Assembly: GCA_048886685.1 (NCBI GenBank)
Contig: JBHLKM010000009.1
Coordinates: forward strand, 107,229-171,228
Direction of reading: 5' to 3'
DNA from: Candidatus Hodarchaeota archaeon
GTDB taxonomy: Archaea > Asgardarchaeota > Lokiarchaeia > Sigyniarchaeales > SOKP01
Length of the DNA: 64,000 nt
A program made the translations under genes and the position numbers. Each line of letters starts with the position of its first letter. Position 1 is the stretch's first letter. This document shows, in pieces, positions 15,506-38,051 of this stretch. The notes below the pieces were generated by a model that ran no database searches, was not told the DNA's origin, and worked only from the letters and a program-made list of their open reading frames with translations.

Positions 15506-15513
15506 AAAAACAC

Positions 15514-16056
15514 TTAGGTTAAAACCTTGGATTTATTATACAATTCATTAATAATAATATTAAAAGCCTCATGAACACCTTGCCCTGTTTTTGCTGAAGT
15601 TAAGTAATATCCTAAAAAACCTTGTTCTTCAACAATTTTTTGAATCGGAGTATCATCCAAATTATCTTCATCAATTAAGTCGACTTTATTAGCAAAAAGA
15701 ATTATTGGGATTTCTCCACAGAATTTTTTAATATTCTCATACCAATTGGTTATATGCTCAAAACTTCGTTTACCTAACTCATTTTCCTCAAGACTATAAA
15801 CAATAATTGCTGCTCCGCTTTCCTTATAAAATGAAGGTCGTAGAAATAGGAAATCATCTTGACCGGCTATATCCCAGAAGATCAATCGAATCTCATCTCC
15901 CTCTATTTCTTTTTCATATTTAGAGAATTGGGCACCTATGGTCTTAACATAATCTTTCTCAAATGAACTCTGAGTAAACTGTTTAATCAATGAAGTTTTA
16001 CCTACTTGTCCATCTCCTATGACGGAAATTTTAAATCGAAATTGTGCAGCAGTCAT
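15514..16056 (-). CDS. Rab/Ras-like small GTPase (third paralog)
   Basis: GDGQVGKT, WDIAGQ, NKVD, SAK; shares the YSLEExxLG insertion with the 9487 and 10218 genes. Confidence 0.92.
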   Translation of the reverse strand: MTAAQFRFKISVIGDGQVGKTSLIKQFTQSSFEKDYVKTIGAQFSKYEKEIEGDEIRLIFWDIAGQDDFLFLRPSFYKESGAAIIVYSLEENELGKRSFEHITNWYENIKKFCGEIPIILFANKVDLIDEDNLDDTPIQKIVEEQGFLGYYLTSAKTGQGVHEAFNIIINELYNKSKVLT

Positions 16057-16279
16057 TTACTTTTTTGGAGAAATCACTATTTCATGTTTTATTTAATAGT
16101 AGATTAGGTTTTTTGTAATTTAAAATTTTAGTTATTAAAAAAAACCTAGTTGATACAAATTTAGTGATTAAATATTAAAAGATTTGAATTTCATTTAATG
16201 AAATTAGTTAAATATCAACTAAAATACAATTAAAATTAAAGATTTGATAAAAATTAAAAAAGAAGAATAAAAAAAGAAT

Positions 16280-16360
16280 TTATTTACGTAAATCCTTAAA
16301 AGCCCAATTTTGGAAATGATTATTTATATTTATTAATCCTTTATTCGCATTTTTTCTCAT
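16280..16360 (-). CDS. putative 26-aa micropeptide (MRKNANKGLININNHFQNWAFKDLRK)
   Basis: Manual translation; GAGGG SD-like motif; divergent from regulator 2 and downstream of a copy of the operator. Confidence 0.45.
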   Translation of the reverse strand: MRKNANKGLININNHFQNWAFKDLRK

Positions 16361-16417
16361 TTTTTTTCCCTCAATAATAGGTTCTTATTAATTTTAATAT
16401 AGATTGACAACTATATT

Positions 16418-16448
16418 TAGTTTAACTTCGTAAACTCCATGTGAAGTT
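16418..16448 (-). promoter_or_regulatory. operator copy TAGTTT-N9-AACTC-CATGTG-AAGTT
   Basis: Same spacing as the 11913-11943 and 12787-12817 copies. Confidence 0.55.
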
Positions 16449-16613
16449 CGAATTTAACGCGAAGGGCTTCTCAGTTTTGTCAGAATTATTTAAAATGAAT
16501 ATGTATTAATATCTTAAAGCTCTTTAATTTTAATCTTGTTGAATGAAGTATCCATACCTTTTTCCCCAATTCATCCAATTCCTCTTCACTAAGTATTTAG
16601 TTTTTACTGCATG

Positions 16614-16629
16614 AACTTTAACCAAAGTT
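16614..16629. promoter_or_regulatory. operator copy AACTT-TAACCA-AAGTT upstream of regulator 2
   Basis: Inverted repeat with a 6-bp spacer, about 90 nt before the start, the same position as 12894-12909 relative to regulator 1. Confidence 0.55.
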
Positions 16630-16716
16630 ATATAGTATTAAAAACTATTATACTATAAGAAGACTATAAGAATTTAGTATGCTAAACATTAAGAAAACTC
16701 TTTCAAAAATGATATC

Positions 16717-20632: not shown

Positions 20633-22123
20633 TTGCATTGTATGATCAAATCTGTCTTAATTGCAAATCGTGGAGAGATTGCAGTTAGGGTCATTCGAGC
20701 CTGCCGGTCAAAAGACATTCAATCAATTGCGGTTTTTTCTGACACAGACAAAAATTCTCTCCATGTAAAAATGGCAGATGAGGCTTACAACTTAGGGAAT
20801 GAATCGGTTCAGAGCACTTATCTTAACATTCCAAAGCTGATTGAAGTAATTGAACGATCTAAAGCTGACGCAGTTCACCCAGGATATGGTTTTTTAAGTG
20901 AAAATGCAGAATTTGTTAGAAGAGTTACTAACCTTGGCAAAATCTTTATTGGACCAAGCCCAAGTACCATTGATTTCCTCGGTAATAAGATTAAAGCAAA
21001 AATACTTGCAAAAAAGGTCAATTTGCCTGTTTTACCTGGTTCAGAAGGATTTATTAATAGTTTAGATGAAGCTAAATCAGTAGCAGATGAGATTGGATAT
21101 CCGATAATAATTAAGGCTGCTTTTGGAGGAGGTGGTCGAGGAATGGAAATTGTTGAATCTGAGGAAAATATGGGTACTGCGTTAGAGAGCTGCCAATCAA
21201 TGGGATTAAAGTTTTTTGGAAGAAAAGAAGTTTTTATTGAAAAGTCAATTACAGCACCTCGCCATGTAGAAATTCAATTTATAGGAGATAATTTTGGTAA
21301 TGTTGTCCATTTAGGAGATCGGGAATGCACTATTCAACGATCTCACCAAAAGCTTATTGAGGAAGCCCCTTCCTTCTTAACAAGAGATGAAATTACCAAT
21401 TTAGGTGAAAGAACTTGTTTTTTGGCTCGTGAATTAAATTACTCAAATGTTGGGACGGCAGAATTTCTTTGGAAGGATGGTAACATCTACTTTAATGAAG
21501 TAAATCCAAGAATCCAAGTGGAGCATGTCGTTACAGAAATGGTTACTGGAATAGATTTGGTTGAAGAACAAATAAACATTGCTTCGAACAAACTATTAAA
21601 CTTTACTCAAGAGGAGATTTCATTACATGGACATGCAATAGAGTATAGGATAAATGCTGAAGATCCCCATAACTCATTCTTTCCTCAACATGGAAAAATA
21701 ACAAATTTAATAATTCCGGGAGGCCCAAAAGTACGTTTTGATAGCTATTTATACCCTAATTACGTTGTCCCTCATGATTTTGATTCATTAATAGGAAAAC
21801 TAGTCGTATGGGGAAGGAATCGTAAAAGAGCAATCAACCTTTCTAAACATGCTCTTAAAGAATTAGTTATCTCAGGAATAAAGACGAATTTAGATATGCA
21901 TAAAGTAATAGTTGAGACTTATGAGTTTAAAAAAGGTGAATTATCAACTGATTTCTTAAACAAAACAAATATTACTCATAATTTAAAAGATTTAGAGAGA
22001 AAGAAATTAGCAGCAGTATTTCAATTGGTTAAACAATTTAATTTTTCAATTCAACCTGAAAAAAAACATAAGAAAAAATCTAATAAATGGCGAGATATCG
22101 CAAAAATAGAGCAATTAAGTTAA
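20633..22123 (+). CDS. accC: biotin carboxylase subunit of acetyl/propionyl-CoA carboxylase
   Basis: ANRGEIA, HPGYGFLSEN, GGGGRG, RECTIQR, EVNPRIQVEH, RINAED; likely start MIKSVL. Confidence 0.93.
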   Translation: MHCMIKSVLIANRGEIAVRVIRACRSKDIQSIAVFSDTDKNSLHVKMADEAYNLGNESVQSTYLNIPKLIEVIERSKADAVHPGYGFLSENAEFVRRVTNLGKIFIGPSPSTIDFLGNKIKAKILAKKVNLPVLPGSEGFINSLDEAKSVADEIGYPIIIKAAFGGGGRGMEIVESEENMGTALESCQSMGLKFFGRKEVFIEKSITAPRHVEIQFIGDNFGNVVHLGDRECTIQRSHQKLIEEAPSFLTRDEITNLGERTCFLARELNYSNVGTAEFLWKDGNIYFNEVNPRIQVEHVVTEMVTGIDLVEEQINIASNKLLNFTQEEISLHGHAIEYRINAEDPHNSFFPQHGKITNLIIPGGPKVRFDSYLYPNYVVPHDFDSLIGKLVVWGRNRKRAINLSKHALKELVISGIKTNLDMHKVIVETYEFKKGELSTDFLNKTNITHNLKDLERKKLAAVFQLVKQFNFSIQPEKKHKKKSNKWRDIAKIEQLS

Positions 22124-22159
22124 AAAGAGAAAAAATACCTAATAAAGAGATTGTTATCA

Positions 22160-22675
22160 TTATAAAACAACATAATTTTCTTTCCCTTTTACTGTGGATA
22201 CACTTTCAATTTTAACTAGCGGTTGATCTTGACCAACATCATCTTCTACATTTACAAAGATTTGCATTATTTTTCCTTTAATTGGGGATAATATCCGATT
22301 TTTCATTTTCATTGCCTCTAATATCAACAATAATTGATCCTTTTCAACAAATTCTTGTTCTTCAATATGGATTTCCAAAATCTTTCCAGGAATGGGAGCA
22401 TTTACGGTTTCTTCTTTAACTTGTGGATTTTCATTGTTACTATCTAAAGATTTTAAATAAGGTTTAATTTCAATATCGATTTCTTCACCCTCTAAATATA
22501 GTACTCCATTGATATATTCCAAATTAAACTGACAATCTTCAAATGTTACTCGAAATAAATTTTCTGTTTCCTGAATAACTAAAGGAGTATAGATGTGGTC
22601 ATCAACTTTTATTTTTCCATCATCTATCGGTCGAACAACATAAGTTCTTCCTCGGAATTTTACTTTTTTCAGCAT
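22160..22675 (-). CDS. accB: biotin carboxyl carrier protein
   Basis: APIPG...LEAMKM biotinylation motif. Confidence 0.9.
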   Translation of the reverse strand: MLKKVKFRGRTYVVRPIDDGKIKVDDHIYTPLVIQETENLFRVTFEDCQFNLEYINGVLYLEGEEIDIEIKPYLKSLDSNNENPQVKEETVNAPIPGKILEIHIEEQEFVEKDQLLLILEAMKMKNRILSPIKGKIMQIFVNVEDDVGQDQPLVKIESVSTVKGKENYVVL

Positions 22676-22688
22676 ACTTGTTATCTTT

Positions 22689-23492
22689 TTAACTTGTTCT
22701 TATTGTTTTTACTAGATGAGAATCAAAGAAATCAATAAGATTTTCACACATTTGTTGAAAATGATTTTCATCTGTAAAGTTATGGTTAGCTCCATCAATT
22801 ATATCAATTTTTTTATTTTCAGATTGAACCTTATTGAAAAGTTGGTGAAAACCATGTTCTGGAAATAAGACATCCTTATTACCAGCGATTAAATAAAATG
22901 GTTTTAATAACTTATCAGCTAATCTAACAGGATTATATTGTCTCGTTTGTTCAGCATACTTTATTTTAAGATCGCCATCTGGAAATCGCATTTCTTTATT
23001 GCGCGTTAAAGCTTTTATGAAAAACTTAAACAAGGGATTTTTTGGTATAATTTCAGTATTAAAAACAGGGGAACGTATCGCAAGACATTGAACTCTTTTA
23101 TCTCTTACAGCATGGCAAAAAGCCATTGCACCTCCAAAACTTTCACCTAACAAGCCAATTCTAAGAGGATCTATTTCGGGATGATAGACTAATTGATTTA
23201 TCACTTGTTCAATATTAGCTTGAGCATCATAATAAGTAAATATCCCCGTACTACCTCTAACACCTTGATGATCATAAGTAAAATATGCTATATTATTATT
23301 AACAAAATGACATGCAAATCTCAGTTCATCTTCTTTAGGTGATTTTCCTGGCATTCCATTAACACGTATTACTAATGGGAAACAAGTGTTTTTAGAGTTT
23401 TCAGGCTCTATAATATCAGGTAAATACAGGATACTCTGTAGGATTTCAGTACGAACCTCAATTTCTATCATTTCCTTTCTCATTAGTATCAC
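22689..23492 (-). CDS. alpha/beta hydrolase, candidate stand-alone thioesterase of the megasynthase
   Basis: GESFGG nucleophile elbow, Asp (GNKD) and His (GANH); GTGA overlap with the megasynthase stop. Confidence 0.75.
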   Translation of the reverse strand: MILMRKEMIEIEVRTEILQSILYLPDIIEPENSKNTCFPLVIRVNGMPGKSPKEDELRFACHFVNNNIAYFTYDHQGVRGSTGIFTYYDAQANIEQVINQLVYHPEIDPLRIGLLGESFGGAMAFCHAVRDKRVQCLAIRSPVFNTEIIPKNPLFKFFIKALTRNKEMRFPDGDLKIKYAEQTRQYNPVRLADKLLKPFYLIAGNKDVLFPEHGFHQLFNKVQSENKKIDIIDGANHNFTDENHFQQMCENLIDFFDSHLVKTIRTS

Positions 23493-26400
23493 TGGATTAT
23501 TGGTTTGTTTTTAAAAGGTTTAATCTCACAGTACGAAAGAACATATTTTTCAGAAAATTCAACCCGTAATTGTAGATCTTTAAGATTTCTATTGATGTCT
23601 AACAAGTCATTTTTGGATTTTAAGGTAAATTTATTGTATTTTTTATTATATTTCAATTCAATGTCTCGGAAATTAATATTAAAGCCTTCCCCTATTGCTT
23701 TTGAGAAGGCTTCTTTCGCTGTCCAGTAGATTGTTCCCAGATAGGCATCGTCTAAAATAGTTTTTCTTTCTGATTCAGTAAATACCTCCTTATAGAATGA
23801 TGGGGATCGGGATTCAATTATCTCTAAATCAATGCCAACCAAATTTTTACTTATCATTGCTACTGAAAAATCATTGGAATGACTTATAGAAAGATTAAGT
23901 GGAATTATTTTATTCTCTTTGTTTGAGTAGTAATATGGCTTACCTTTTTCATCCTTTTGAATTTCAAAGTCATGATATGAACCATCAACAGCAATAATCC
24001 TACGATAACATTCTTTTGCGGCAATAATGCCAGAAAAATATTCAATTTTTCTTTTTATATTCCTAAAGCGCTTTGAGTTTTCTATCTCTGTTTCAGTCAG
24101 ATAAGTTTCAAAAAATTTCGGATTTATTTGATATAGATCTTTTAGTTTTGCAATAGGTAGAACTTGAATTTCGTTTTTAATTTTATTATTCTTTAGGTGG
24201 TAATACTCTTTTAAGGTAGTTAGATAATCAGAGAGGTTATTTGAGAGGTTTACTGTAATTTGTGCATGGATGATTTCTAGGTTTTCAATTTTCGCTATAA
24301 TTTCTTGATCTTCATCTAAAATTACCGAGTTATAATAAGATCTCTCCTCGTCTTTTTTTAAGAATTTAGCTACTATGTATTTTGGTCTTTGGTTTGATTT
24401 TATTTGAATAGAGGAGGCTTTTGAGGGAAGAGAGAGATGGTTATTTATGATGTAATCAAATAACGCTGCGGTTTGAAATACACATTCCATGGATAAGGGT
24501 TCAAATTGAAAATGATCCTCTTCCTCATTATTAATAATAGGAACTGTTGGAAGATCGATCTTTGTTACTATTTTTCCTTTCTCTAATTGAATAACTTCTT
24601 CTAGAACTTGAAATTTCTTCCCATGAAAGAAAAGCTCATAAATTTCAGTTTTATCAAGTAAAGGAATTAATGGATTTAAAATTAGATCTTTTTCCCATCT
24701 CATTTCTTTTACTAAATCATCGAACTGAGCATCGAAATGGTTTTTTATTAGTGGTTTTCCTTTTAGAACTGTGGGAAAAGTCTTTGATTGAAGTGATATC
24801 TTATTATTGGATTTATTAAATGTTAGTTCTACTTCTACTGACTTACCTACTGAAATTTTCAGGGGCGTGTGAAAATTAATATTTGAAATAGAGGTTAACA
24901 CCTTATCGAACACTCGATGGTAGAATTCTGCGAATGTTTCTAGAGCCATTACACCAGGAAATACAGGTTTTTTTTGAATTTGATGATCAAGAAGATATGT
25001 GTCGAATTCAGAATTTATGGTGTTAAAACCAATTATATATTCAGATTGATAATTTATTTTTTCTAACATAGGATATTCTTTTTTATCAATAACTTCCTCA
25101 ATATCAAGCATTTCCTCAAAGATCCCTAACTTCCCCGCAATTATATATTCCCCAGTGAAGTTGTTTAATACTAAATTGGTAAATATCTTTATACCAGTTA
25201 TTGAAGGAACAGGTGAAACTCCTGCTTGAGTAAGGATTTGTAAAGTGGAACCTTGAGTAGCCATACCAATATCTGCCCAAGCTGTCCAATCAAAAGTTAA
25301 AAATGGGATATTGCGTTGGTTGAATTCCCAAGCCATACGCGATAAATACGCATTAGCAAATGCATAATCAATTTGACCCTGATTCCCATAACGTCCAGCA
25401 ATTGAGGAAAAAGTTACAAAATATTTGACGTCTTGAATCTTTATATATTTGAGAATTTTTGAAAACCCTCCAACTTTAACATCAACAATTTTATGAGCCA
25501 TATTTAAATTTTTCTTCAAGAAACTTTTTGATTCTTCTATCCCAGCACCATGGATAACAACTGTTATCTGATTTTTAGTTTCTTCATTAATTGTTTGGAA
25601 GATGTTCTTCATTTTTTCATCATTAGTAACGTCTACTGCATAATATTGAACTGAAAGACCTTTTTTCTTCAAATTTTCGATATTACGAAGAGTATCTAAT
25701 TTGTCGAGGAATTTCTTCCATTCTCTGTTAATCATAACAGGAGTTACTTTCTCTAGTGTAGATTTCAATGACTTAACCAATTCTTCCTTTTTCTCACTCA
25801 ACATGTCCGGGGTGTATTGTAAATATTCTAAAAATGAATCATCGTACGGGCTTAATCCTAAAAGAATTAGTTGTGGTTTAGTATGGTTTGTTAATTCATC
25901 AATACAAGCAAAAGTTATTCCTTGTGCTCCTCCTGTAACCAATAATACATCTTCTTCTGTTATCGAAGAATAATTCAATTTTGGGAGCTTTTCTACTTTT
26001 TTTCTTAATAATGTATAACGTACATTTTCCCTGTAGGCTATTTCCTCAAGTTTATCCCAACTCAAGAACTCTTGAGTAATCTGTCCTAAATTCATTGAAG
26101 AAATAAGCTTGATCGGAATCTGAAATTCGCGATTGATTGTTTTTATAAAAGCACCTATACTAGAAGCAAGGGGATTAGCTCCTTGTTTCCAACCGAAAGT
26201 AGTATCTGGAGAAATAACTAAGATTTTTTCTAATATTGATAAATTTAAAGATTGAAAAATGAGAAAAAGACTGTCGAAAATGTTTAAACTATCATTAATG
26301 GTATATTGACTATTATCTGGAATAACCAATATGAGTATCTTGAAATCTATATCAAATGGAAATTCACTATTATTATTATTTAGATCTTTAACTAAATTTT

Positions 26401-29400
26401 CATTAACATCAACATTGAAAATTTGAACATTTAATCCAAAATTTTCAAAATCTTTGCTTAAGTTTTTGTAATTTGATAATCCTGAGTTAATGTTAAGAAT
26501 TAATGTATTAATATCCTTGTATTTCAGATTTTCCTTCGAGGGGAGCAATTTAAAAACTCGGGAAGGAACTACTTTTGACACATAAATTTGGTCATCATTT
26601 TCATTTTCTGATTTTTCTTTTACCTCGCTGATATTTTTGACAGGTTCTAATTCCATATCAACTGATTGCGATTTTTTATTGATGAACTGGATTACAAATT
26701 CAGTGATCTCATTAGGCGTACGGATGTCAGCTATGTTAATTTCAACATTATCTTCTAGTTTGTAATATTCACGCAAGACTCCAAAGATTTCTGCTTGCTT
26801 TACTGTATCAATCCCCAAGTCTTCTTCCAAATCATAAGAATCATCGATATCAGTAAGGTCATAACCAGTTTTGTCAGCAATAATTTTTTTTACTAAATTT
26901 TTTACCTGATTTATATCATCAATTTCATTAGATTTTAATACAATACTTTGCTGTTTAATGCTAATATCTGTTTCCATATTCTGGTCATTTAAGAATTCTC
27001 GCATTTTAAGAATTATATTCTTAATACTGCCAAGTCCTACCAAATTTATTTCTGTGTCCTCTGAGATTTTCAAATCATTCCGAAGTTCTCCAAAAATCTC
27101 CGCTTGTTTGACAGTATCAATACCTAAATCCTCTTCTAAATCAAACTCAGGATCGATATCTTCAATATCGTATCCTGTCTTTTTAGAAATGATTTCAATT
27201 AACTTATTTTCAAGTGATTTATTATCTAAACCCGAGGAACTATTACTAGAAACAATATCATGACCTAAAGACTCATTGAGCATGTGAACGATATCATTTA
27301 TAGTGCGATAGTCTGCTATATTGAATGAATCATCAATTTCAATTTTCCATTTTTCTCGGATTTCTCCGAAAATCTCTGCTTGTTTGACAGTATCAATTCC
27401 AAGATCTTCCTCCAAATCATAGGTTTCTTCAATGTCTTCTGGATTATAACCGGTCTTTAAAGCGATGATTTTTTTGATCTCAACTATCATATCGATTTTA
27501 CCAACCGAAATTGATTGCTGAGGGATTTCTGTTTCTTTTGGTGATTGAATTGTAGTAATTATAGCAGAAATACGTTCTGTATTCATCTTTAAGACTCTAC
27601 CATCCATGAATACTTGTGTCCCGCTCCCACCTACATTTTGAAGCCATTGTTCATAGTTTGGTTTGGTAAAACGATTATCATATGATACTAAACGGAATAA
27701 GACAATGGCTAATTGTGAACCGAATCCAGCGGCAAAACGTAAAGCATATTTCTTTCGTTCTCTTACTCCTTTTGAAAAGTTGAAATTTGAATAGTTTGAA
27801 TCTATCTTATTAAAATTCGCTATCGGGGGAATTTTTCCTTTCTCCATTGATTTAATTGCCACAGCTTCTTCAATACCTGCACCCATCGCATGACCAGTAT
27901 ATCCCTTCGTATTAATTATAATCATATCATAAGCATTTTTACCAAATGTATTTTCTAATGCTCTTAATTCTGATTCCGCACTTCCACCTCGAGCAGGGGA
28001 ATAAGTTTCATGACTTACAAACATCCCTTCATTAGCCAATTCTCTTTTACTAATACCATGTACTTTTTCCATCTTTAAAATAAAATCGTTAAGTCTTTGG
28101 GAAATATCATCCTTATCTAATCGTGTACCATGATAAGCGCTATTCCCAAAATAAGAACCAAGAATTTCTACAATTGGTTTTACTCCTCGAGCTTCAGCTT
28201 CGGAATTTTGTTCAATAACAAATGCACTTGCTCCTGCACCTAATACAATTCCATTCCTTCCTTCTCCAAAGGGAAGTACTGCTTCCTCCCATCGAGATTT
28301 TGTTGTAGCGGCTCCACTTGCAATAAATCCTGCACCAATCCATTGAAAAAGGTTCTTACTTGTTACATTATCGGCAGTGATTACAACAACTCGTTTACAT
28401 CTCCCAGTTCGAATCCAGTCTTCTGCAATACCTATTGCTTGAGGTGCAGAAGCACAAGCTGCATTAATAGATGTATTTGGTCCTTTAGCTTTTATTAATT
28501 GAGCAAATTGAGAATGTCCCATAGATAAAACTCTAAATAAAAATGAGCGATTAAAATTTTCTACACTTTCCTCACTAGAATTTAATTGATTGAATTTAAA
28601 ATTAGAGCACTGTTGAGAATCTTCTGCAAAATTATCGTATCCTGGAAATGCAGATGCAAAAATGATACCTGTATCATCTTGTAATGATTCTGGTAAAGCC
28701 CAGTCACCAGATAATGTCTTACCCGTAGAGGTTTTAATAGTGCTACGAACTAATGGAATTCCCGCGTCTTTAAGTGCATCATATCCTGCACAAATTGCTA
28801 GTTGGAATGTAGTATCTAAAGCATTTAGGATTTTAGGATTAAGTTGATAATCCTCTGTCGGGTTAAAATCCCCCATCTGTCCTGCCAAGTGAATTACTTT
28901 AGAAATATCATCTATAGGCACAAATTTAGCATTACCATTAGGGGATTTTTCCAAACGAATTATATTTTTTTGATATAATTGTTCTTGAAATTCACTACTT
29001 ACCGATTCGATTAGATTAACTCCATCTAAAATATCATCGATATTTTTATCATCAAAAATTTTACGATTTTTGCCAGGAAGTCCAATACCTACACCAGTGA
29101 TTACGACAGGTGTAGAATTAAGCAGTGATCCTTTCTTATCATATTTATTTTCAATTGAAATATGATATTTCTTAAGATAATTATGAAATCCTTGAATCAT
29201 AACCGAAGACAAAAGTTCTTTTTGTTCTTCTAGAAATTCATTAAAAAATGGAAGTTGCTTTAATTTAGATAAGTCTTCATTCGAAATTAAAGAATTTTGA
29301 TTTTTTTCAAGTGTAGGGGATTTTTTCGATATTTTTGGTTTTTGATCTGGAATAGCTGGTGGTTGAGTTTTGATTTCATCAATGGGGCTAGCTGATTTTA

Positions 29401-32400
29401 TACTACTGAACTTCTCAAAAATCTTTTGAATATGCTCTTCTTCAGAAGATTTTGGTGAAAGTGTAAAATCAACCTCAATATCTTTATATTTTTTTAATAT
29501 ATCTTTTGTAAAAAAGAAGAGAGCCTTTTTTGGTCCGATTTCTATAAATTTTCGGCCCCCATTTTGATAAATATTCAAAATCTCATCAACCCATCTAACA
29601 GGGGATGTAATTTGCTTAAGAAGGATTGATTTTATTTTGTCAGGATTATCAGGATATATTTTGCCTGTTACATTACTAAATACAGGTATTCTAGGAGATT
29701 TAAATTCTATTGTTTTCAAAAAGCTTTCCAATTTTTCTTCAGCGTGAGTGACAAATTTAGAATGAAATGCATTTGACACGTTTAATTTTAGAGCTCGAAT
29801 TTCTTTTTCTGAAAATACTTTCACTACAGATTCAACTGCCGATAACTCTCCTGATATGACCGTTTGAGATGTAGAGTTATAATTTGATATTGAAACATCA
29901 TCAATTGATAGCTCATCTAAAGTTTTCTCAACAACTTCCGGTGATATAAATATCGCCGCCATAGAACATTGAACACCAAGAGGTAACTTTGACATTGCTT
30001 CTCCCCTTTTGATTACAATTTTTAACCCATCTTCAAAACTCAATACTCCTGCTGTAGTTAAAGCCACGAATTCCCCTAAGCTATGACCTCCAACAATTCC
30101 CGGAGTTAAATCTTTAGTTTTAAAAAGTTGCAATAGAGCCATTTCAACTGAATAAATAGCCGGTTGAGTGAACTCCGTTTGTTGTAATCTATTGGAATTT
30201 TCTTCTTGTGATAAATTTGGAGATCCAAAAATTACTTCTAGTAGGTCAAAACCACCAAAATCTTTACATATATCGTTTGCTTTATCAAGTGTATCTTTGA
30301 CGACTTGGAACTTTTCGTATAATTCCCTTGACATCCCTACATATTGACTTCCTTGACCACTAAAAAGAAAACATAAATCGGTTGAATACGGAGTACTCAA
30401 ATGATCAAGTTGAGGTTCAAAATGATCATACATATGTTCTTCACATAGAGGATACGATCTAGCTTTTTCTATCGATGATATCTCGTAGGATTGAGGTAAG
30501 AATTCTTCGAGGATTACATGATAATTTGCCCCTCCAAATCCGAATGATGAAACACCGGCTCTTCTTATTCCTGTTTTGGGAGTTAACCACTCAATTGGTT
30601 CCGTATTAACATAATAAGGAGCCGTATCCCAATTTATTGTGGGATTAAGAGTTGAAATGTTAATAGATGGAGGAATAATTTTATTATGTAATGCTAATAC
30701 TGTTTTAATAATACCAGCTATACCTGCAGCACTTTTGAGGTGTCCAATTTGACTTTTTATTGACCCAATTGCTAGTTTTTGCTTTTCATTTCTTTCAGAA
30801 AACACATCGTCTAGCACATTTAATTCAGTAGCATCTCCAACGACTGTAGATGTTCCATGGCATTCAAGATATTGAATGTCTGATGGGCTTATATTACTAT
30901 TCTTTAAAGCCCGTAATATGGCTAATTTTTGTCCATCTGGATTGGGTGCAGTAATGCCCTTACCTTTTCCATCTGAAGAACCCCCATACCCCATAATAAT
31001 CGCATAAATTTTGTTCTCATCACGTAATGCATCTTCAAGGCGTTTTAAAACTAAAAATCCAGCTCCTTCTCCCATAACAAACCCGTTAGCACGAGCATCA
31101 AAGGGATATGAGCCATCTTCAGACAAAGCACCAATTTTACAGAATTTAATGTATGTTTGAGGATCCATTGAACTATCGACCCCCCCTACAAGGACTGTAT
31201 CATAATCCTTAACTAGTAACCCATTAACAGCTGTATCAATTGCGGCTAAACTAGAAGCACAAGCAGCATCAATTGTCATGCTTTTACCAGTTAAATTAAA
31301 CACGTTTGCGACTCTACCAGCAATTATGTTTGACAATTCACCTGGCATAGTATCTTCGTTAATCACTGGAATTTGATTAATTATTTTATCTTCAAGGAAA
31401 TTTAGAAGATTATTTTTTTCTTCTTTCTTCAGAATCATCAGAGAGCTTGCTTCATTGATTCTATATTTGATTTCATTAAAAAGTATACGTTTATTGCTGA
31501 GACGTTGTTTATCTCCCCCTAAGGAGTTTCCAACGATAATTGCAATGGGCAAACGTTTTTTCCCGTCAAAAGGATACCCCGCATCAAGAAGTGCTTCTTT
31601 TGCTGTAATAATAGCCCATATCTGAACTAAGTCCATCCTTTCTGCCATTTTTGGAGGAATTCGATATTTAATAGATTTAAATTCAAATTTTTTCACAAAT
31701 CCACCAATTTTTGTATATGATTTATCGGGGGATGAATGATCTTTATCATAAAAGATTTCAGGTTCCCATCTGTCTATGGGAACTTCTGTAATCGAATAAT
31801 TTTTATTCACAATATTTTTCCAGAATTGTGGAATGTCCTCAGCATCTGGAAAGAGACCTCCTAAGCCAATGATGGCTATTTTATTTACTATGGACAACTT
31901 TTTTTGTGATTTTTTATCCTTTTCCATTATTACTTGACCTAAAGAATCTTTTATTGTTTGATTCGATATTTTTTTGATAAATTTGTAACCCCCTTCAATT
32001 ATATCATAATGTATTTGGGGGATTGTTCTAATTGTATTTTGTAAGGAAATAGAATCACCTGTCATAAATGCACCTTTAACTACTTGGTCTTTTACTGAGA
32101 TCGAAGTAAATTGGGACTTCTCGCTCCCTTCTATATGATTATCATTCCAAATCTCAGCTCTGGAAGCTATTCTTAGTGCACCTAAATTGTCTTTCTCATA
32201 CAATTCTTTTCTTTGCGAAATAGAAATACCTTGCGCTTTTCGCAAAAATTCTTGCTTAATAGTGTGATGGGAAAATTCGGTAGAGATTACCCTTGCTCGA
32301 GTATTTACAGTTGTGCCAATCACTTTTGTAGATGAATTATTAAGTAATAATTCTTGATAAACTGGGGATAAAGCTCTAGTTGTCACAATTTCTTCGCTTA

Positions 32401-34060
32401 AGAGGTAAGCAGTTCCCATTTGAATACCAGGATTTATAATATCTAAATGATTTCCAATCATACCTCCCAACATAGCTGAACTTACTTCATCAATAATCCC
32501 ACCAGCAAAAATAACATTTAATTTCTCGGTGAATATATCTTTTTCCTTATCCAAATATTCTAAAATACACTCCCAAAGAATGAAAGATGATAATGTTCCA
32601 AAATGACCTCCACACTCACTACCTTCTAATATCATATAATCGAGGTTACTTTTTATGGCTTTTTTAAACATAGAAAGCACAGGTGTGTGTATTAAGACCT
32701 TATTGCCTAAATTCTTAACTTGAACACCAAGATCAATAGTACCAGCGGCAATTAAGGTGATTTCGGGACCATACTTTTTAATACATCTAAGATGTTCATC
32801 CCTACGAGTCTTTACAGCTTCTAAACCTATAATACCACAACCGTATGGCTTCTTTGATAAATCTTTCACACTAATGTTTGATAAGAGTTCAACTGTTTCA
32901 GTTGATAATAATCCACCTAAAGCTAATATTGGAAGGGCACCATTATCTGCTACTTTTCTAGCAAATTCTAATTTATCAGAGATATTCGCCATTGGCCCTT
33001 GAATAATGGGATATGTAATGTTTAGTTGTTTCGCAAATTCAGAATTTTTGGCAAAAGGCCAATGTTCTATACTATTTTGAATCTGATTAGAGATTATTTT
33101 AACTAAATCATTTAGAAATTTTTTTAAATCGCCGAACTTGGCTAAAATATAGTTCGCAAAACAAATACCATGATCACTTGGTAAAAAAGAATGGTTGGGC
33201 TCTGTATCAGAATATATATGACAATGATTTTGAAATTTGGTAATTCTATGAAGAAATTCATGTTTGAGAGTAAAATAATCATTGTTAAATTCTTCATTTA
33301 ATTTTGAAAAATCTTTTTGCTCAACTTCCTTTATTGATCGAATTGATTTATTAGCCAATTTTCCAATCAAACGATAATTATATCGTAAAGTTTCATGTAC
33401 AAGATAAAAATCATTCTCTTCAATTGTCTTAATATAATTTTTAAATTTTTGATTTAAAGGACATTCAGGTAGCAAGAATAACTGACTTTCTAATACGATT
33501 CCTAAAGTCCCACCAATAAATGCTGAACATATGTTATATACCCCAAAACCTCCCTGAATTATGAATGGAAGACCTGCTTTTTGGAATTCTTGAATGAGTA
33601 TAAAAGTATTTTTAGTTCCGACTAAACCACCTGCTTCATTCCCTTTAACAAGAAAAAAGTCTGCCCATTCCGCGGTTTCATAAGCTTCTTCTAAGTATAA
33701 CACTTCGGAAAGAATTAATTTTGAATTTTTCTGCATTATAAGAATTTCCTTATAATTTGGAGAGAATGCACAGATGATAATTGGAATTAGTTCTTGAAAT
33801 TCGAGTGCATAAAGGACTTCTTGAGAAGAAATCCGGATACCCCATATGTGATCAGAAGATAAAGATGATTTTAATTTATTAAAAAGTATTTTACATTGAT
33901 CAATATTAAGTCCTTCAAAATCTACTAAACCAATTCCCCCGGTCTGGCATATTTGAACTGAAAGTGAAGGATCTGTTATACCTTTTGGTGAATAACCCCA
34001 AATAGGAATTCTGTTTTTTAAAATTTGCTGGATATTCTTTTTCTTTTTCATAAAAATCAA
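23489..34060 (-). CDS. type I iterative FAS/PKS megasynthase (PUFA-synthase-related): ER*-ER-KS-MAT-KS-ACPx3-KR-DH-PPTase
   Basis: FabK/PfaD-like barrels (~31980-34060; GPMANISD, EGSECGGH); KS1 ~30505-31885 (DAACASS, HGTS, KSQIGH); AT ~29530-30380 (GQGSQ, GHSLG, AFHS); KS2 ~27690-29115 (NAACAS, SHETYS, KGYTGH); three ACPs ~26680-27490 (DLGIDTVKQAE); KR ~25140-25950 (TGGAQGI, DYAFAN); DH ~24260-25070 (LLDHQIQKKPVFP); PPTase ~23520-24140 (ISHS, GIDLE, WTAKEAFSKA). Confidence 0.92.
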   Translation of the reverse strand: MIFMKKKKNIQQILKNRIPIWGYSPKGITDPSLSVQICQTGGIGLVDFEGLNIDQCKILFNKLKSSLSSDHIWGIRISSQEVLYALEFQELIPIIICAFSPNYKEILIMQKNSKLILSEVLYLEEAYETAEWADFFLVKGNEAGGLVGTKNTFILIQEFQKAGLPFIIQGGFGVYNICSAFIGGTLGIVLESQLFLLPECPLNQKFKNYIKTIEENDFYLVHETLRYNYRLIGKLANKSIRSIKEVEQKDFSKLNEEFNNDYFTLKHEFLHRITKFQNHCHIYSDTEPNHSFLPSDHGICFANYILAKFGDLKKFLNDLVKIISNQIQNSIEHWPFAKNSEFAKQLNITYPIIQGPMANISDKLEFARKVADNGALPILALGGLLSTETVELLSNISVKDLSKKPYGCGIIGLEAVKTRRDEHLRCIKKYGPEITLIAAGTIDLGVQVKNLGNKVLIHTPVLSMFKKAIKSNLDYMILEGSECGGHFGTLSSFILWECILEYLDKEKDIFTEKLNVIFAGGIIDEVSSAMLGGMIGNHLDIINPGIQMGTAYLLSEEIVTTRALSPVYQELLLNNSSTKVIGTTVNTRARVISTEFSHHTIKQEFLRKAQGISISQRKELYEKDNLGALRIASRAEIWNDNHIEGSEKSQFTSISVKDQVVKGAFMTGDSISLQNTIRTIPQIHYDIIEGGYKFIKKISNQTIKDSLGQVIMEKDKKSQKKLSIVNKIAIIGLGGLFPDAEDIPQFWKNIVNKNYSITEVPIDRWEPEIFYDKDHSSPDKSYTKIGGFVKKFEFKSIKYRIPPKMAERMDLVQIWAIITAKEALLDAGYPFDGKKRLPIAIIVGNSLGGDKQRLSNKRILFNEIKYRINEASSLMILKKEEKNNLLNFLEDKIINQIPVINEDTMPGELSNIIAGRVANVFNLTGKSMTIDAACASSLAAIDTAVNGLLVKDYDTVLVGGVDSSMDPQTYIKFCKIGALSEDGSYPFDARANGFVMGEGAGFLVLKRLEDALRDENKIYAIIMGYGGSSDGKGKGITAPNPDGQKLAILRALKNSNISPSDIQYLECHGTSTVVGDATELNVLDDVFSERNEKQKLAIGSIKSQIGHLKSAAGIAGIIKTVLALHNKIIPPSINISTLNPTINWDTAPYYVNTEPIEWLTPKTGIRRAGVSSFGFGGANYHVILEEFLPQSYEISSIEKARSYPLCEEHMYDHFEPQLDHLSTPYSTDLCFLFSGQGSQYVGMSRELYEKFQVVKDTLDKANDICKDFGGFDLLEVIFGSPNLSQEENSNRLQQTEFTQPAIYSVEMALLQLFKTKDLTPGIVGGHSLGEFVALTTAGVLSFEDGLKIVIKRGEAMSKLPLGVQCSMAAIFISPEVVEKTLDELSIDDVSISNYNSTSQTVISGELSAVESVVKVFSEKEIRALKLNVSNAFHSKFVTHAEEKLESFLKTIEFKSPRIPVFSNVTGKIYPDNPDKIKSILLKQITSPVRWVDEILNIYQNGGRKFIEIGPKKALFFFTKDILKKYKDIEVDFTLSPKSSEEEHIQKIFEKFSSIKSASPIDEIKTQPPAIPDQKPKISKKSPTLEKNQNSLISNEDLSKLKQLPFFNEFLEEQKELLSSVMIQGFHNYLKKYHISIENKYDKKGSLLNSTPVVITGVGIGLPGKNRKIFDDKNIDDILDGVNLIESVSSEFQEQLYQKNIIRLEKSPNGNAKFVPIDDISKVIHLAGQMGDFNPTEDYQLNPKILNALDTTFQLAICAGYDALKDAGIPLVRSTIKTSTGKTLSGDWALPESLQDDTGIIFASAFPGYDNFAEDSQQCSNFKFNQLNSSEESVENFNRSFLFRVLSMGHSQFAQLIKAKGPNTSINAACASAPQAIGIAEDWIRTGRCKRVVVITADNVTSKNLFQWIGAGFIASGAATTKSRWEEAVLPFGEGRNGIVLGAGASAFVIEQNSEAEARGVKPIVEILGSYFGNSAYHGTRLDKDDISQRLNDFILKMEKVHGISKRELANEGMFVSHETYSPARGGSAESELRALENTFGKNAYDMIIINTKGYTGHAMGAGIEEAVAIKSMEKGKIPPIANFNKIDSNYSNFNFSKGVRERKKYALRFAAGFGSQLAIVLFRLVSYDNRFTKPNYEQWLQNVGGSGTQVFMDGRVLKMNTERISAIITTIQSPKETEIPQQSISVGKIDMIVEIKKIIALKTGYNPEDIEETYDLEEDLGIDTVKQAEIFGEIREKWKIEIDDSFNIADYRTINDIVHMLNESLGHDIVSSNSSSGLDNKSLENKLIEIISKKTGYDIEDIDPEFDLEEDLGIDTVKQAEIFGELRNDLKISEDTEINLVGLGSIKNIILKMREFLNDQNMETDISIKQQSIVLKSNEIDDINQVKNLVKKIIADKTGYDLTDIDDSYDLEEDLGIDTVKQAEIFGVLREYYKLEDNVEINIADIRTPNEITEFVIQFINKKSQSVDMELEPVKNISEVKEKSENENDDQIYVSKVVPSRVFKLLPSKENLKYKDINTLILNINSGLSNYKNLSKDFENFGLNVQIFNVDVNENLVKDLNNNNSEFPFDIDFKILILVIPDNSQYTINDSLNIFDSLFLIFQSLNLSILEKILVISPDTTFGWKQGANPLASSIGAFIKTINREFQIPIKLISSMNLGQITQEFLSWDKLEEIAYRENVRYTLLRKKVEKLPKLNYSSITEEDVLLVTGGAQGITFACIDELTNHTKPQLILLGLSPYDDSFLEYLQYTPDMLSEKKEELVKSLKSTLEKVTPVMINREWKKFLDKLDTLRNIENLKKKGLSVQYYAVDVTNDEKMKNIFQTINEETKNQITVVIHGAGIEESKSFLKKNLNMAHKIVDVKVGGFSKILKYIKIQDVKYFVTFSSIAGRYGNQGQIDYAFANAYLSRMAWEFNQRNIPFLTFDWTAWADIGMATQGSTLQILTQAGVSPVPSITGIKIFTNLVLNNFTGEYIIAGKLGIFEEMLDIEEVIDKKEYPMLEKINYQSEYIIGFNTINSEFDTYLLDHQIQKKPVFPGVMALETFAEFYHRVFDKVLTSISNINFHTPLKISVGKSVEVELTFNKSNNKISLQSKTFPTVLKGKPLIKNHFDAQFDDLVKEMRWEKDLILNPLIPLLDKTEIYELFFHGKKFQVLEEVIQLEKGKIVTKIDLPTVPIINNEEEDHFQFEPLSMECVFQTAALFDYIINNHLSLPSKASSIQIKSNQRPKYIVAKFLKKDEERSYYNSVILDEDQEIIAKIENLEIIHAQITVNLSNNLSDYLTTLKEYYHLKNNKIKNEIQVLPIAKLKDLYQINPKFFETYLTETEIENSKRFRNIKRKIEYFSGIIAAKECYRRIIAVDGSYHDFEIQKDEKGKPYYYSNKENKIIPLNLSISHSNDFSVAMISKNLVGIDLEIIESRSPSFYKEVFTESERKTILDDAYLGTIYWTAKEAFSKAIGEGFNINFRDIELKYNKKYNKFTLKSKNDLLDINRNLKDLQLRVEFSEKYVLSYCEIKPFKNKPIIQ
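26680..27490 (-). repeat. three tandem acyl-carrier-protein repeats inside the megasynthase
   Basis: II..KTGY....I....DLEEDLGIDTVKQAEIFG.[IL]R repeated three times. Confidence 0.85.
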
Positions 34061-34072
34061 CCAGTTTTATAG

Positions 34073-35644
34073 TTATACCGGGGAGATCCCATGTTTTCTT
34101 CTAGGAGTCTGTTCACGTTTAGTTTCAAAAAAGTTCAGATATTTAATGATCTCGCTGCGAGTTTCATGTGGAAAGATTACTTTATCTATATGTCCTTTTT
34201 CAGCGACTTGATAAGGATTTGAAAATTCTTTTTTATAGCATTCAGTGAAATCCTTTAATATAGCATCGGGATCTTCTACATCCTTTAAATGATTTCGAAA
34301 CAGAATCTTACATGCACCTTCAGCACCCATCACGGCAATTTGGGCCGAATTCCATGCGATATTAACATCTGCTCCCAATTCTTTTGAATTCATGACAATA
34401 TAAGCACCGCCATAAGCTTTACGAATAATAACAGTAATTTTTACGATTGTAGCTTCTGAATATGCATATAACATTTTAGCACCATGCCTGATAATTCCAG
34501 AGTGTTCTTGTTTAACGCCAGGCATAAATCCCGGAACGTCTACTAGGGTCAAAAGAGGTATATTAAAAGCATCACAGAATCTAATAAATCTTGTCGCTTT
34601 ATCCGATGCATTGTAATCTAGAGCTCCACTAAGGAACATAGGTTGATTCGCAATTATACCCACAGTCTGATTTTCTATTTTCCCGAACCCAATTATTATA
34701 TTTTTTGCCCAATCTGGAAAAAGTTCTAAAAATGAATCTTGATCCACTATTACATTAATTACACTTTTCATGTTATATGGTTCATCTTCATTTTTTGGTA
34801 CTATTTGTTCTAATAAATAGGGATCTTCACCATAAATTTGCTTTAAAGAGTGAGGAATATCATCTAAATTATTTGACGGGATATATGATAATAGTTTCTT
34901 GGTGAATTCTAATGCTTCTTCTTCAGTATCTAAGGCTTTATGACATACCCCTGAAATAGTCGAATGAACTTCTGAACCTCCTAATTCTGAAAAAGAGGTA
35001 TTTTCTCCTGTTACTGCATTTACTACTTGAGGTCCTGTTATAAACATATAAGCGTTCTTTCCACCCATAATAATAAAATCTGTTAATGCTGGACTATAAA
35101 CTGCCCCTCCAGCAGAAGTGCCTAAGATAACAGAAATTTGAGGGATAATTCCTGAAGCTCGAACATTTCGATAAAAAATATCCCCTAACCCGTCAAGGGC
35201 ATCAACTCCTTCTTGAATACGAGCACCTCCCGAATCTATTAATCCAATTAAAGGACAACCCATTTTTAAGGCTAAATCCATGATTTTACAAATTTTCTGA
35301 GCATGAGCTTTCCCTATAGTCCCTCCCAATACTGTAAAATCTTGACTATAAATGAATACTCTTCGACCCTCTATTGTACCATAACCAGTTATTACCCCAT
35401 CTCCAAGAAATTTCTTTTTTTCCATACCAAATTTATTACACTGATGCTTAACAAATGAATCAATTTCTACAAAGGTTCCGAAATCTACCAGAAATTCGAG
35501 TCTTTCCCTAGCAGTTAATTTACCCTTTTTATGTTGAATATCAATATGATCTTGTCCACCCCCTAATTTGGACTCATTTCGTAACTCTTGTAGCTTCTCT
35601 GTCAATTCAAAGTTATCTTCTGATTTACCATCCTTTAAAATCAT
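34073..35644 (-). CDS. acyl-CoA carboxylase carboxyltransferase subunit (PccB/AccD single-chain type)
   Basis: GKLTARER, QDFTVLGG, DSGGARIQEG, DVPGFMPG, RKAYGGA, KHG.SP. Confidence 0.92.
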   Translation of the reverse strand: MILKDGKSEDNFELTEKLQELRNESKLGGGQDHIDIQHKKGKLTARERLEFLVDFGTFVEIDSFVKHQCNKFGMEKKKFLGDGVITGYGTIEGRRVFIYSQDFTVLGGTIGKAHAQKICKIMDLALKMGCPLIGLIDSGGARIQEGVDALDGLGDIFYRNVRASGIIPQISVILGTSAGGAVYSPALTDFIIMGGKNAYMFITGPQVVNAVTGENTSFSELGGSEVHSTISGVCHKALDTEEEALEFTKKLLSYIPSNNLDDIPHSLKQIYGEDPYLLEQIVPKNEDEPYNMKSVINVIVDQDSFLELFPDWAKNIIIGFGKIENQTVGIIANQPMFLSGALDYNASDKATRFIRFCDAFNIPLLTLVDVPGFMPGVKQEHSGIIRHGAKMLYAYSEATIVKITVIIRKAYGGAYIVMNSKELGADVNIAWNSAQIAVMGAEGACKILFRNHLKDVEDPDAILKDFTECYKKEFSNPYQVAEKGHIDKVIFPHETRSEIIKYLNFFETKREQTPRRKHGISPV

Positions 35645-35661
35645 AATAATCCCATATTTAT

Positions 35662-35675
35662 TTAAATAAACAAGT
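35662..35675 (-). promoter_or_regulatory. 14-bp element ACTTGTTTATTTAA upstream of the carboxyltransferase-megasynthase operon
   Basis: Exact match to 20585-20598; overlaps the palindrome TTTATTTAAATAAA (35657-35670). Confidence 0.4.
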
Positions 35676-36059
35676 AATTATTTTTATCAAAAGTTAATTT
35701 ATAAAATTATTACTTGAAGACACACTATTATTAGTATTACGGGTTTGACCATATATTATTAAAAATTCTTCTTTTTTTTAATAAACCTATAATCGAGATT
35801 TTTATGAGAAGATAATTAATAATTTATTGAATTAATAAACTAATTTCAGATTTTAATATAATTTAATTCAATTTCTAAATTTGAACGTTTATAAATTTTC
35901 AATTAACTTATATAGTAAGACTTTTTTCGAGAATTATCCATTTTTTTATTTTTTGAATTAATTTAATAAAAAATCAGACAATAAATTTGAAAACAATTTA
36001 TATTAACCCGTGTATTTATTTTATTAATCTCTCTTTTAAGCAGCAGATTAGAATAAAAT

Positions 36060-36815
36060 ATGTTCTTAAAAATAAAGATTGTTCACATTGACGAAACTAA
36101 ATCTACCCAAGACAGTATAACCGAATACCTTAAAAATGATTACTATTCGTCACTATTGTTAGTTGCGAAAACGCAAACAAAAGGTCGTGGAAGAAAACAA
36201 GATGACTGGCATTCTCCAGAGGGAGGATTTTGGGCAACTCTGGGATTAACCACTTCATTAACTTTGAATGAATCACAATTAGCTTTGTTCCACTATTTTA
36301 CAGCAACATTATTATCACGAATTATTAAGGAAGAATATGATTTACAAGTTCAAATTAAGTGGCCTAATGACATATTATATGAAAATAGAAAACTAGCAGG
36401 AATCTTAATCGATTATGTAATATGTTCCCAAGAAAATTATATACTGATTGGAACGGGAGTAAATTTAAATAATTCAAGTAATGAGATGCCGGAAAGTTTA
36501 AAATCATCAGCAATTTCAATAAAAGATATATTACATAAACCAGTATCAATTGATACTTTTGCTCTAAAAATTTGTTTTTATGCAAACGAATATTATTCAC
36601 CAATTATAGAATGTAATCAAAAAAAAATTCTAGATTTAATTCAAGAATATAATCAAAACTCTCGAATTTTCGGTAAAGATGCTATTCTTGATGATTTACA
36701 AAAATATTATTGCCATGGAATTAATAAAGAAGGATTATTGCAATTTTCGAATAAAAACTCAAAGTTAAATTTAAAAATTGATGATTTAACAAGGATAAAA
36801 AAGATAATTTTCTGA
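36060..36815 (+). CDS. birA: biotin-protein ligase (class I, no HTH)
   Basis: STQ, QTKGRGR, W.SP.GG, IKWPND, KLAGIL, GTGVN. Confidence 0.9.
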   Translation: MFLKIKIVHIDETKSTQDSITEYLKNDYYSSLLLVAKTQTKGRGRKQDDWHSPEGGFWATLGLTTSLTLNESQLALFHYFTATLLSRIIKEEYDLQVQIKWPNDILYENRKLAGILIDYVICSQENYILIGTGVNLNNSSNEMPESLKSSAISIKDILHKPVSIDTFALKICFYANEYYSPIIECNQKKILDLIQEYNQNSRIFGKDAILDDLQKYYCHGINKEGLLQFSNKNSKLNLKIDDLTRIKKIIF

Positions 36816-36821
36816 TAAGCA

Positions 36822-38051
36822 TCACATAGTCTCTACGAGTATGGAAATAATATTATTACCGAAACCTCCGAAGTTGCATGTAATTCCAGCTTCTGCACCT
36901 TCGACCTGTCGTTTCCCAGCTTCACCTCTTAATTGCCAAACTAACTCAACAATTTGAGCAACTCCTGTCGCACCTAAAGGATGTCCTCGTGCTTTTAATC
37001 CTCCTGAGGGATTTATAGGAATTTTTCCCCCAATTTCAGTTTGTCCGTTATGAGCTGCTTTTGCCCCTTCTCCTTTTTTGAAGAAGCCAATATCTTCTGA
37101 TTGGACTGCTTCAAGGATCTCAAATGCGTCATGCAGTTCAGCTACATCTATATCTTTGGGGGATTTTTTTGCCATTTTGTATGCTTGATCTGAACATAAT
37201 CTTAAAGCTTTTAGGGTAGTAAGGTCTTCGCGTTCAAATACGATGTGAGTATCTGTTGCTTGACCTATACCTGAAATCATAATAGGTGTATCAATAAAAT
37301 CCTTAGCTTTTTCAGCATTACATAAAACTAAAGCTGCTGCTCCATCTGAGATGGGACAAATATGAAAAAGTCTTAAAGGATCGGCGATTATTGGATTTAC
37401 TTCATCATCTTTTAGAAAATCATGAATGTTGTTCCAATTACCCCTTCCCTTTTGAGTGGCACTCTTCATAAAATCATCAATTGCCCTTTGAAAATGTGCA
37501 TTCGGGTTTAAAACTCCATTTTTATGGTTTTTAATCGCGATATCTGAGATCCATTCAATTTTAGCATTATATTTTTCAAGATATACTCGTGTTAATAAAC
37601 CCGCGAAAGAAGGAAGAGAAACACCATGAGGTTTTTCTGCTTCGGGATGTGTTAAAGTGGCAACATTGGAAGTAATATAGCCAGGAGTCGTAATATGAGT
37701 CATTTTTTCTCCACCAACCACTAATACTAAATCACTCATTCCTGAGGCAATTGCTTGAAAACCAGCTTTTATTGCTGATCCTCCACTAGCAGGTCCATTT
37801 TTAATATCATCTGCTGCTGCAGGAATCAAACTGATTCTATCTACTAAAGCACTCGCAATACCAGATAAATGATTGAGAATTTCTGGACTCATAACACCTA
37901 CATACACCGAATCAAAATCTTTATCCCCAGTGTTGGAATCTTCAATAGCTTCTAAAGATGCTTCACATAAGAGATCCATTAATCCTTTGTCTTGTAGTCT
38001 ACCGAATTTAGTATGCCCTACTCCAATAATTGCTACCTTGTTCATTATCAT
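36822..38051 (-). CDS. archaeal/SCP2-type thiolase-family protein (catalytic Cys absent)
   Basis: GGEKM, ISDGAAA, ELHDAF, NPSGGLKARGHPLGATG; NGPASG in place of NACASG. Confidence 0.85.
   Translation of the reverse strand: MIMNKVAIIGVGHTKFGRLQDKGLMDLLCEASLEAIEDSNTGDKDFDSVYVGVMSPEILNHLSGIASALVDRISLIPAAADDIKNGPASGGSAIKAGFQAIASGMSDLVLVVGGEKMTHITTPGYITSNVATLTHPEAEKPHGVSLPSFAGLLTRVYLEKYNAKIEWISDIAIKNHKNGVLNPNAHFQRAIDDFMKSATQKGRGNWNNIHDFLKDDEVNPIIADPLRLFHICPISDGAAALVLCNAEKAKDFIDTPIMISGIGQATDTHIVFEREDLTTLKALRLCSDQAYKMAKKSPKDIDVAELHDAFEILEAVQSEDIGFFKKGEGAKAAHNGQTEIGGKIPINPSGGLKARGHPLGATGVAQIVELVWQLRGEAGKRQVEGAEAGITCNFGGFGNNIISILVETM

Follow-up and report, generated by a model that had tools for sequence, protein, structure and literature searches.

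The three domains of the acyl carrier protein (ACP) type in a very large enzyme resembling fatty acid synthases (FAS) and polyketide synthases (PKS), encoded by a Candidatus Hodarchaeota archaeon, carry threonine at the position where serine would be expected to receive the phosphopantetheine arm. The gene lies within a stretch of 64,000 nucleotides of contig JBHLKM010000009.1, hereafter called the window, where one minus-strand open reading frame running from 34060 to 23489 encodes a single 3523-residue protein that contains all three copies of the motif DLGIDTVKQAE. That Thr2224, Thr2316 and Thr2419 occupy the phosphopantetheine-serine position is confirmed below by alignment and structural modelling. 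Threonine at this carrier site is moreover a real, strongly selected and family-wide character, and the spread of its codons goes far beyond chance. Judging from comparative sequence data, it is probable that this threonine is a working attachment site for phosphopantetheine.

Threonine at the carrier attachment site

A first-pass annotation of the window had noticed the three copies of the motif, with Thr codons ACT, ACT and ACA, and had considered a sequencing error unlikely. Both statements hold. The flanking codons vary between the repeats, and ACP2 and ACP3 have diverged from ACP1, with which they share just 46–51% identity. Since their codons differ and their identity is this low, the repeats can be put down neither to recent, exact duplication nor to a mistake in sequencing. 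PF00550 is matched by all three domains (24.8–31.6 bits, cut-off 20.8), and in ungapped pairwise alignments the threonine falls on the phosphopantetheine serine of the PigH, Vibrio and E. coli-type (type II) ACPs. In an AlphaFold2 model of ACP3 (86 sequences; mean predicted confidence, pLDDT, 89), Thr2419 is residue 1 of helix II. Template-modelling (TM) scores of 0.6–0.87 against solved ACPs indicate that the predicted structure is the helical bundle typical of ACPs. These domains therefore look like ACPs in fold while lacking the serine that defines the attachment site, which is threonine in all three. The annotation had also raised the question of whether another serine might open helix II; none does, and the threonine itself holds that position. 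When 552 distinct ACP domains of the family are aligned, no other position has a conserved Ser or Cys; Ser reaches a maximum of 30% at these positions and is wholly absent from 75 of the 552 domains.

A search with the carrier region matched 3105 long proteins. The best 120 of these 3105, which were analysed first, span Asgard archaea, Thermoplasmatota, Desulfoluna, Bacteroidota, Chloroflexota, Spirochaetes, Woeseiaceae and others, and have Thr in 596 of 601 domains. Having been retrieved on the ACP itself, this first set is biased toward the motif, and retrieval was therefore redone with the second ketosynthase (KS2), which is independent of the ACP. The 102 new sequences obtained in this way comprise 82 with Thr in every carrier, 15 that combine Thr with decayed or Ser copies, 4 with Ser and no Thr, and 1 truncated protein. 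Both sets were pooled (225 proteins, 823 distinct domains, counts that take in many related sequences), and an intact motif was defined without using the attachment site or the residue at +3. By this definition 790 distinct domains are intact, among which 774 carry Thr, 16 carry Ser and 0 carry any other residue. The 33 decayed domains have D, E, A, P, G, K, N, I or Q at the site, as well as S and T. Because decayed copies vary while intact ones are restricted to Thr and Ser, it seems that the fold tolerates other residues and the intact motif does not. A hydroxyl residue is found at the site in all 220 synthases that have an intact-motif carrier.

The counts for intact domains, together with the use of all four ACN codons across the loci (ACT 52, ACA 31, ACC 28, ACG 25), bear out the earlier impression that the threonine is maintained. 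The annotation's mention of GIDT motifs in bacterial PKSs was likewise correct, this motif being the norm of the synthase family. PfaA-like controls read DSIKR or DSVKR, and in a control set drawn from a KS1–acyltransferase profile search, made up mostly of unrelated multi-ketosynthase proteins, 17 of 19 detected carriers have Ser and 0 have Thr. Monophyly of the Thr family is moderately supported (SH-aLRT 87); its Asgard members form one clade on the KS1 tree and are unresolved on the KS2 tree. A Thr carrier accompanied by a linked phosphopantetheinyl transferase (PPTase) domain is also present in a cultured actinomycete, Nonomuraea gerenzanensis.

Carrier number and placement also vary within the family. 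Synthases of the Heimdall/Kariarchaeaceae type retain decayed pseudo-ACPs that flank the intact carriers or lie between them (L049-L051, L063, P0379, P0385, P0397, P0420); as their positions recur, these pseudo-ACPs may be structural. In some Myxococcota, Bdellovibrionales and deltaproteobacterial members (L009, L011, L012, L014), one more Thr carrier precedes KS2, located either between KS1 and the acyltransferase (AT) or between AT and KS2.

The rare departures from threonine were placed on the KS2 tree. The four all-Ser synthases recovered by KS2 retrieval are nested within clades of Thr members, and the branches with good support require 3 or more separate all-Ser origins; proteins that mix Thr and Ser imply three further Ser origins. 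Two full-length Asgard all-Ser revertants retain every catalytic motif as well as the PPTase, and the codons used for the revertant serines differ (TCT, AGT, TCA). Since intact carriers that lose Thr gain Ser, and never a non-hydroxyl residue, the site appears to be used chemically in both states, and these reversions are the strongest comparative argument that it is. That the family norm is Thr, with rare exceptions going to Ser alone, indicates that Thr is probably the attachment site. A further correlate is the residue at +3, which is Gln in 765 of 774 Thr domains versus 4 of 16 Ser domains, counts that are not independent; Gln has been lost in about half of the roughly six Ser lineages. 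This coupling provides a lead suggesting that the carrier's own helix II may help the threonine to react.

The fused transferase and the probable loading of threonine

The C-terminal PPTase is of the Sfp type. Its H, D, E, K, E and K residues align with those that bind Mg2+ and coenzyme A (CoA) in Sfp, and its sequence predicts the same two-lobed architecture. Across 43 fused or adjacent copies there is no variation at the Asp, Glu, Lys, Glu and Lys positions and almost none at the His. No other carrier or PPTase was found in the genome of this archaeon (47 contigs) beyond the three Thr domains and the fused enzyme, and the profile of the Asgard WDS-type carrier gave no match in this genome. 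The single-contig genome of a relative (G135) gave the same result, with no carriers detected apart from the Thr domains and no PPTase apart from the fused one. Four Asgard genomes that lack the synthase have a stand-alone PPTase within about 2 kb of a small Ser carrier. As stand-alone PPTases adjoin Ser carriers where the synthase is absent, the PPTase goes with the carrier in these genomes. A PPTase gene lies no more than two genes away at 8 of 10 bacterial loci that have no fused copy.

Small stand-alone carriers bearing a WDS[IM] motif occur in other Asgard families, at a distance of about 2 kb or less from a stand-alone PPTase (L096-L099; G128, G067, G310, G317); such PPTases are present in about 50 genomes of two Asgard families. 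At one locus of a closed genome (L062; G015:C1:482000-501000), the synthase is spread across two reading frames and is followed, 2.7 kb downstream, by another copy of the PPTase, possibly as the result of an assembly error or of a local duplication.

The following mechanism is proposed. The fused PPTase would use Mg2+ and CoA to move 4'-phosphopantetheine onto the hydroxyl of the threonine, so that the usual Ser-linked phosphodiester would be replaced by a secondary one. Once in their holo form, the domains would pass malonyl and acyl groups among AT, the two ketosynthases (KS), the ketoreductase (KR), the dehydratase (DH) and the enoyl reductase (ER) in a fatty-acyl synthesis that would be iterative and probably fully reducing, for which the adjacent biotin carboxylase would provide extender units and from which the adjacent hydrolase would probably free the product. 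Tolerance of threonine would probably stem in part from carrier helix II, through Gln at +3, and not solely from a special PPTase. In this scheme it is covalent modification, the role of Gln at +3, the product and the release step that I infer.

Several points weigh against phosphopantetheinylation of threonine. Secondary alcohols make poorer nucleophiles. A PPTase clade, residue or other feature specific to Thr was sought among the family PPTases, and none was found. No report of Thr-linked phosphopantetheine or of a GIDT/DTVKQ motif was found in the literature, in a search whose coverage mostly excludes subscription journals. The S36T variant of E. coli ACP is not phosphopantetheinylated, is non-functional and does not support growth (PMC3340395). 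Since that variant cannot be modified, a mechanism that accommodates the threonine methyl group is required. The substitution and its position are the same as here, but S36T is engineered, whereas the threonine of the synthase family is natural, selected and set in a different helix II.

The annotation had proposed that the cis-encoded PPTase modifies the threonine and that enzyme and carrier form a dedicated orthogonal pair. The first part stands as the best explanation of the Thr/Ser-only spectrum, the reversions and the intact, sole PPTase; the second fares poorly. In its strict form, the pair would consist of a PPTase that alone modifies Thr and ignores Ser carriers, with insulation from host AcpS and Sfp. 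Such a pair could account for the fusion or adjacency of the PPTase in the majority of members, bacteria with further PPTases included, for the retention of Thr though Ser is one base away, and for the failure of S36T to be modified in E. coli (PMC3340395). The PPTases associated with Thr carriers also share a signature, GxDxExxExRxxxF (E 88%, R 98%, F 86%), that is rare in generic Sfp types. However, all-Ser revertants retain the ExR...F signature after GxDxE, and Thr and Ser domains are mixed within single proteins. A three-KS subfamily uses a different group of PPTases, without ExR...F. Some PPTases of Ser systems or of undefined context fall among the Thr-associated ones, which thus do not form an exclusive clade, and in this archaeon no second carrier was found to which the pair could be orthogonal. 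Finally, a single PPTase is detectable in the draft genome of Desulfoluna butyratoxydans, which has an eight-Thr synthase as well as many Ser carriers; the PPTase is encoded far from the synthase and is most like the PPTases that adjoin other Thr synthases. Unless the draft lacks a second PPTase, this enzyme loads Ser carriers and Thr carriers alike. Strict orthogonality is therefore unlikely; insulation in one direction, with host enzymes unable to load Thr, may nevertheless apply. A wider proposal, that throughout the family a Thr-linked arm is accepted by way of the DTVKQ helix II and loaded by the synthase's own PPTase, not by AcpS or Sfp, so that the carriers are naturally insulated, can be put forward tentatively as a possible extension of Thr attachment.

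Could the domains instead work without a cofactor, as docking or structural modules of a synthase that acts on CoA thioesters, as the annotation had alternatively suggested? Classical ACP-dependent fatty acid synthesis is not known in archaea, and CoA-based elongation exists elsewhere. Inactivation of E. coli ACP by the Ser-to-Thr change (PMC3340395) is in line with this idea too. Yet it fits poorly with the invariant AT and PPTase active sites, which it leaves unexplained together with the Thr/Ser-only spectrum and the whole-protein reversions to Ser, and in closed genomes the PPTase would be left with no other detectable substrate. A cofactor-free synthase is thus quite improbable.

There is similarly little chance that the threonine bears another group (a direct O-acyl ester, a regulatory phosphate or a different group derived from a nucleotide), or that it makes helix-capping or partner contacts while the arm is attached elsewhere. 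A Ser/Thr-only pattern would also suit phosphorylation or capping, and the family ACPs do have a second near-invariant Thr, in the motif KTGY (97%). KTGY is nevertheless part of the tandem-ACP scaffold, being found also as TGY or SGY in the Ser-type PigH; P, E and D are tolerated at the attachment site of decayed copies; the sole gene-linked modifying enzyme is the PPTase; and the deep active sites of KS domains need a long arm. Recoding or editing of the codon to Ser, or decay of the gene as a relic, would agree with a patchy distribution within the genus (8 of 51 other genomes) but is extremely improbable given the use of all four ACN codons in organisms of many phyla, the open frames and the conserved active sites.

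The synthase, its relatives and its locus

The catalytic residues of the remaining domains (Table 1) are intact: Cys-His-His of KS1, Ser-Arg-His of AT, Cys-His-His of KS2, Ser-Tyr-Asn of KR, His of DH and His of ER are 99–100% conserved, and the acidic residue of DH is E or D. From its motif, AT is presumably of the malonyl type. KS2 keeps its triad in all 118–119 family members scored; because C1869, H2017 and H2057 are invariant across the family, KS2 is probably catalytically active and not a chain-length factor (CLF). The three-KS subfamily mentioned above includes Desulfoluna and others. In six bacterial members (L069-L071, L073-L075) the gene directly upstream of the synthase encodes an acyl-CoA dehydrogenase, and electron transfer flavoprotein (ETF) genes lie near two of the six, whereas Asgard members such as this one carry the fused FabK-like ER (window 31970-34018), which suggests two interchangeable solutions for enoyl reduction.

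Table 1. Domains of the synthase and neighbouring genes, with positions in the window
Feature	Position	Strand	Residues and remarks
Iterative type I FAS/PKS-like megasynthase	23489..34060	-	3523 residues; ER(degenerate?)-ER-KS1-AT-KS2-ACP x3-KR-DH-PPTase
FabK/PfaD-like flavin enoyl reductase	31970..33040	-	H486 invariant; second, more degenerate ER copy N-terminal
KS1	30497..31885	-	C934/H1068/H1107
AT	29471..30376	-	S1327/R1352/H1433
KS2	27671..29098	-	C1869/H2017/H2057; boundaries approximate; triad invariant in family
ACP1	27278..27481	-	Thr2224 at phosphopantetheine position, codon ACT 27391-27389
ACP2	27011..27214	-	Thr2316, codon ACT 27115-27113
ACP3	26693..26896	-	Thr2419, codon ACA 26806-26804; opens helix II in model
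KR	25271..25945	-	S2886/Y2899/N2903
PKS-type DH	24275..25021	-	H3026/E3192
Fused Sfp-type PPTase	23516..24184	-	H3394, D3411, E3413, K3449, E3450, K3454 intact; sole PPTase found in genome
Acyl-CoA carboxylase carboxyltransferase	34073..35644	-	sole copy in this genome
Alpha/beta hydrolase	22689..23492	-	GESFG motif; overlaps synthase stop codon; candidate release thioesterase
Biotin carboxyl carrier protein (BCCP)	22160..22675	-	
Biotin carboxylase	20633..22123	+	
Biotin protein ligase	36060..36815	+	

The synthase is flanked by genes for a carboxyltransferase, biotin carboxylase, BCCP, biotin ligase and hydrolase, and the same neighbours are present in most Asgard loci examined. Window positions 20633-36815 thus hold a complete, self-contained kit of acyl-CoA carboxylase, biotin ligase, synthase and hydrolase. 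The synthase gene has a GC content of 32% versus 31% for the genome, and its nearest relatives are Promethearchaeota (Lokiarchaeia) proteins and contigs, the contigs being part of same-genus genomes. Its carrier domains are present in 62 of 398 genomes of the Asgard phylum, including most genomes of three other Asgard families (27/31, 9/12 and 10/12). Elsewhere in the window are two proteins combining winged helix-turn-helix and tetratricopeptide repeats together with a Ras-family GTPase that has an N-terminal extension (12983-18621 and 49212-50405), a methylmalonyl-CoA mutase (7340-9016) and two thiolases (36822-38051 and 46144-47490).

Self-priming through a C-terminal PPTase is a feature shared with fungal FAS I and the enediyne PKS (PKSE), which differ in using Ser and in having another domain order and ACP type. 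With the polyunsaturated fatty acid (PUFA) synthases, represented by PfaA and PfaE, the Hodarchaeota synthase shares the KTGY...DLGID scaffold, tandem ACPs and a related KS1. It scores 907 bits against TIGR02813 (PfaA), below the cut-off of 1010, and has DTVKQ where PfaA-like controls have DSIKR or DSVKR; no PfaB or PfaC is encoded among its neighbouring genes, and no FabA-type DH was found. Its PPTase aligns with B. subtilis Sfp (1QR0/4MRT) and human AASDHPPT over the motifs SH, GxDxE and WxxKExxxK, and differs from them by its fusion to the synthase, by ExR..F after GxDxE and by its presumed Thr acceptor.

The closest match is with the Type R clusters for secondary lipid synthases described by Shulse & Allen (2011), in which a PfaA homolog with the layout KS-MAT-(second KS-fold)-ACP(3-6)-KR is accompanied by a linked PPTase and often by acetyl-CoA carboxylase genes (PMC3098273). 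These authors label the second KS a chain-length factor; their paper yields 0 matches for threonine or archaea (PMC3098273). The Hodarchaeota synthase cluster appears to be of this type: it has the KS-MAT-CLF/KS-ACP(3-6)-KR layout, the PPTase, albeit fused and not encoded by a downstream gene, and the carboxylase genes. It adds to this layout two ER-like domains, DH and PPTase, all fused, and an archaeal host, and the domain termed "CLF" retains Cys-His-His in all family members tested. Proteins of Roseiflexus sp. lie within the KS2 family and tree and carry GVDT or GIDT, while five strains named for Type R are outside the set. A Heimdallarchaeota PKS with a PUFA-like KS has been recorded previously, without an analysis of its carriers (PMC7472256).

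Consequences of a probable threonine-linked arm

If threonine does carry the arm, the rule that carrier modification is always on serine would be broken, and thousands of ACP domains deemed inactive by motif rules would be active. Proteomic searches for phosphopantetheine that are restricted to Ser would overlook such carriers. Efforts to build carrier/PPTase pairs and peptide tags of altered selectivity would also gain a starting point from nature. For the Asgard archaea, the finding bears on whether they are capable of ACP-dependent type I fatty-acyl synthesis and is relevant to the transition from archaeal to eukaryotic lipids; should the family-wide, insulated form of Thr loading be true, an ACP-dependent fatty-acyl pathway would exist in about one in six Asgard genomes.
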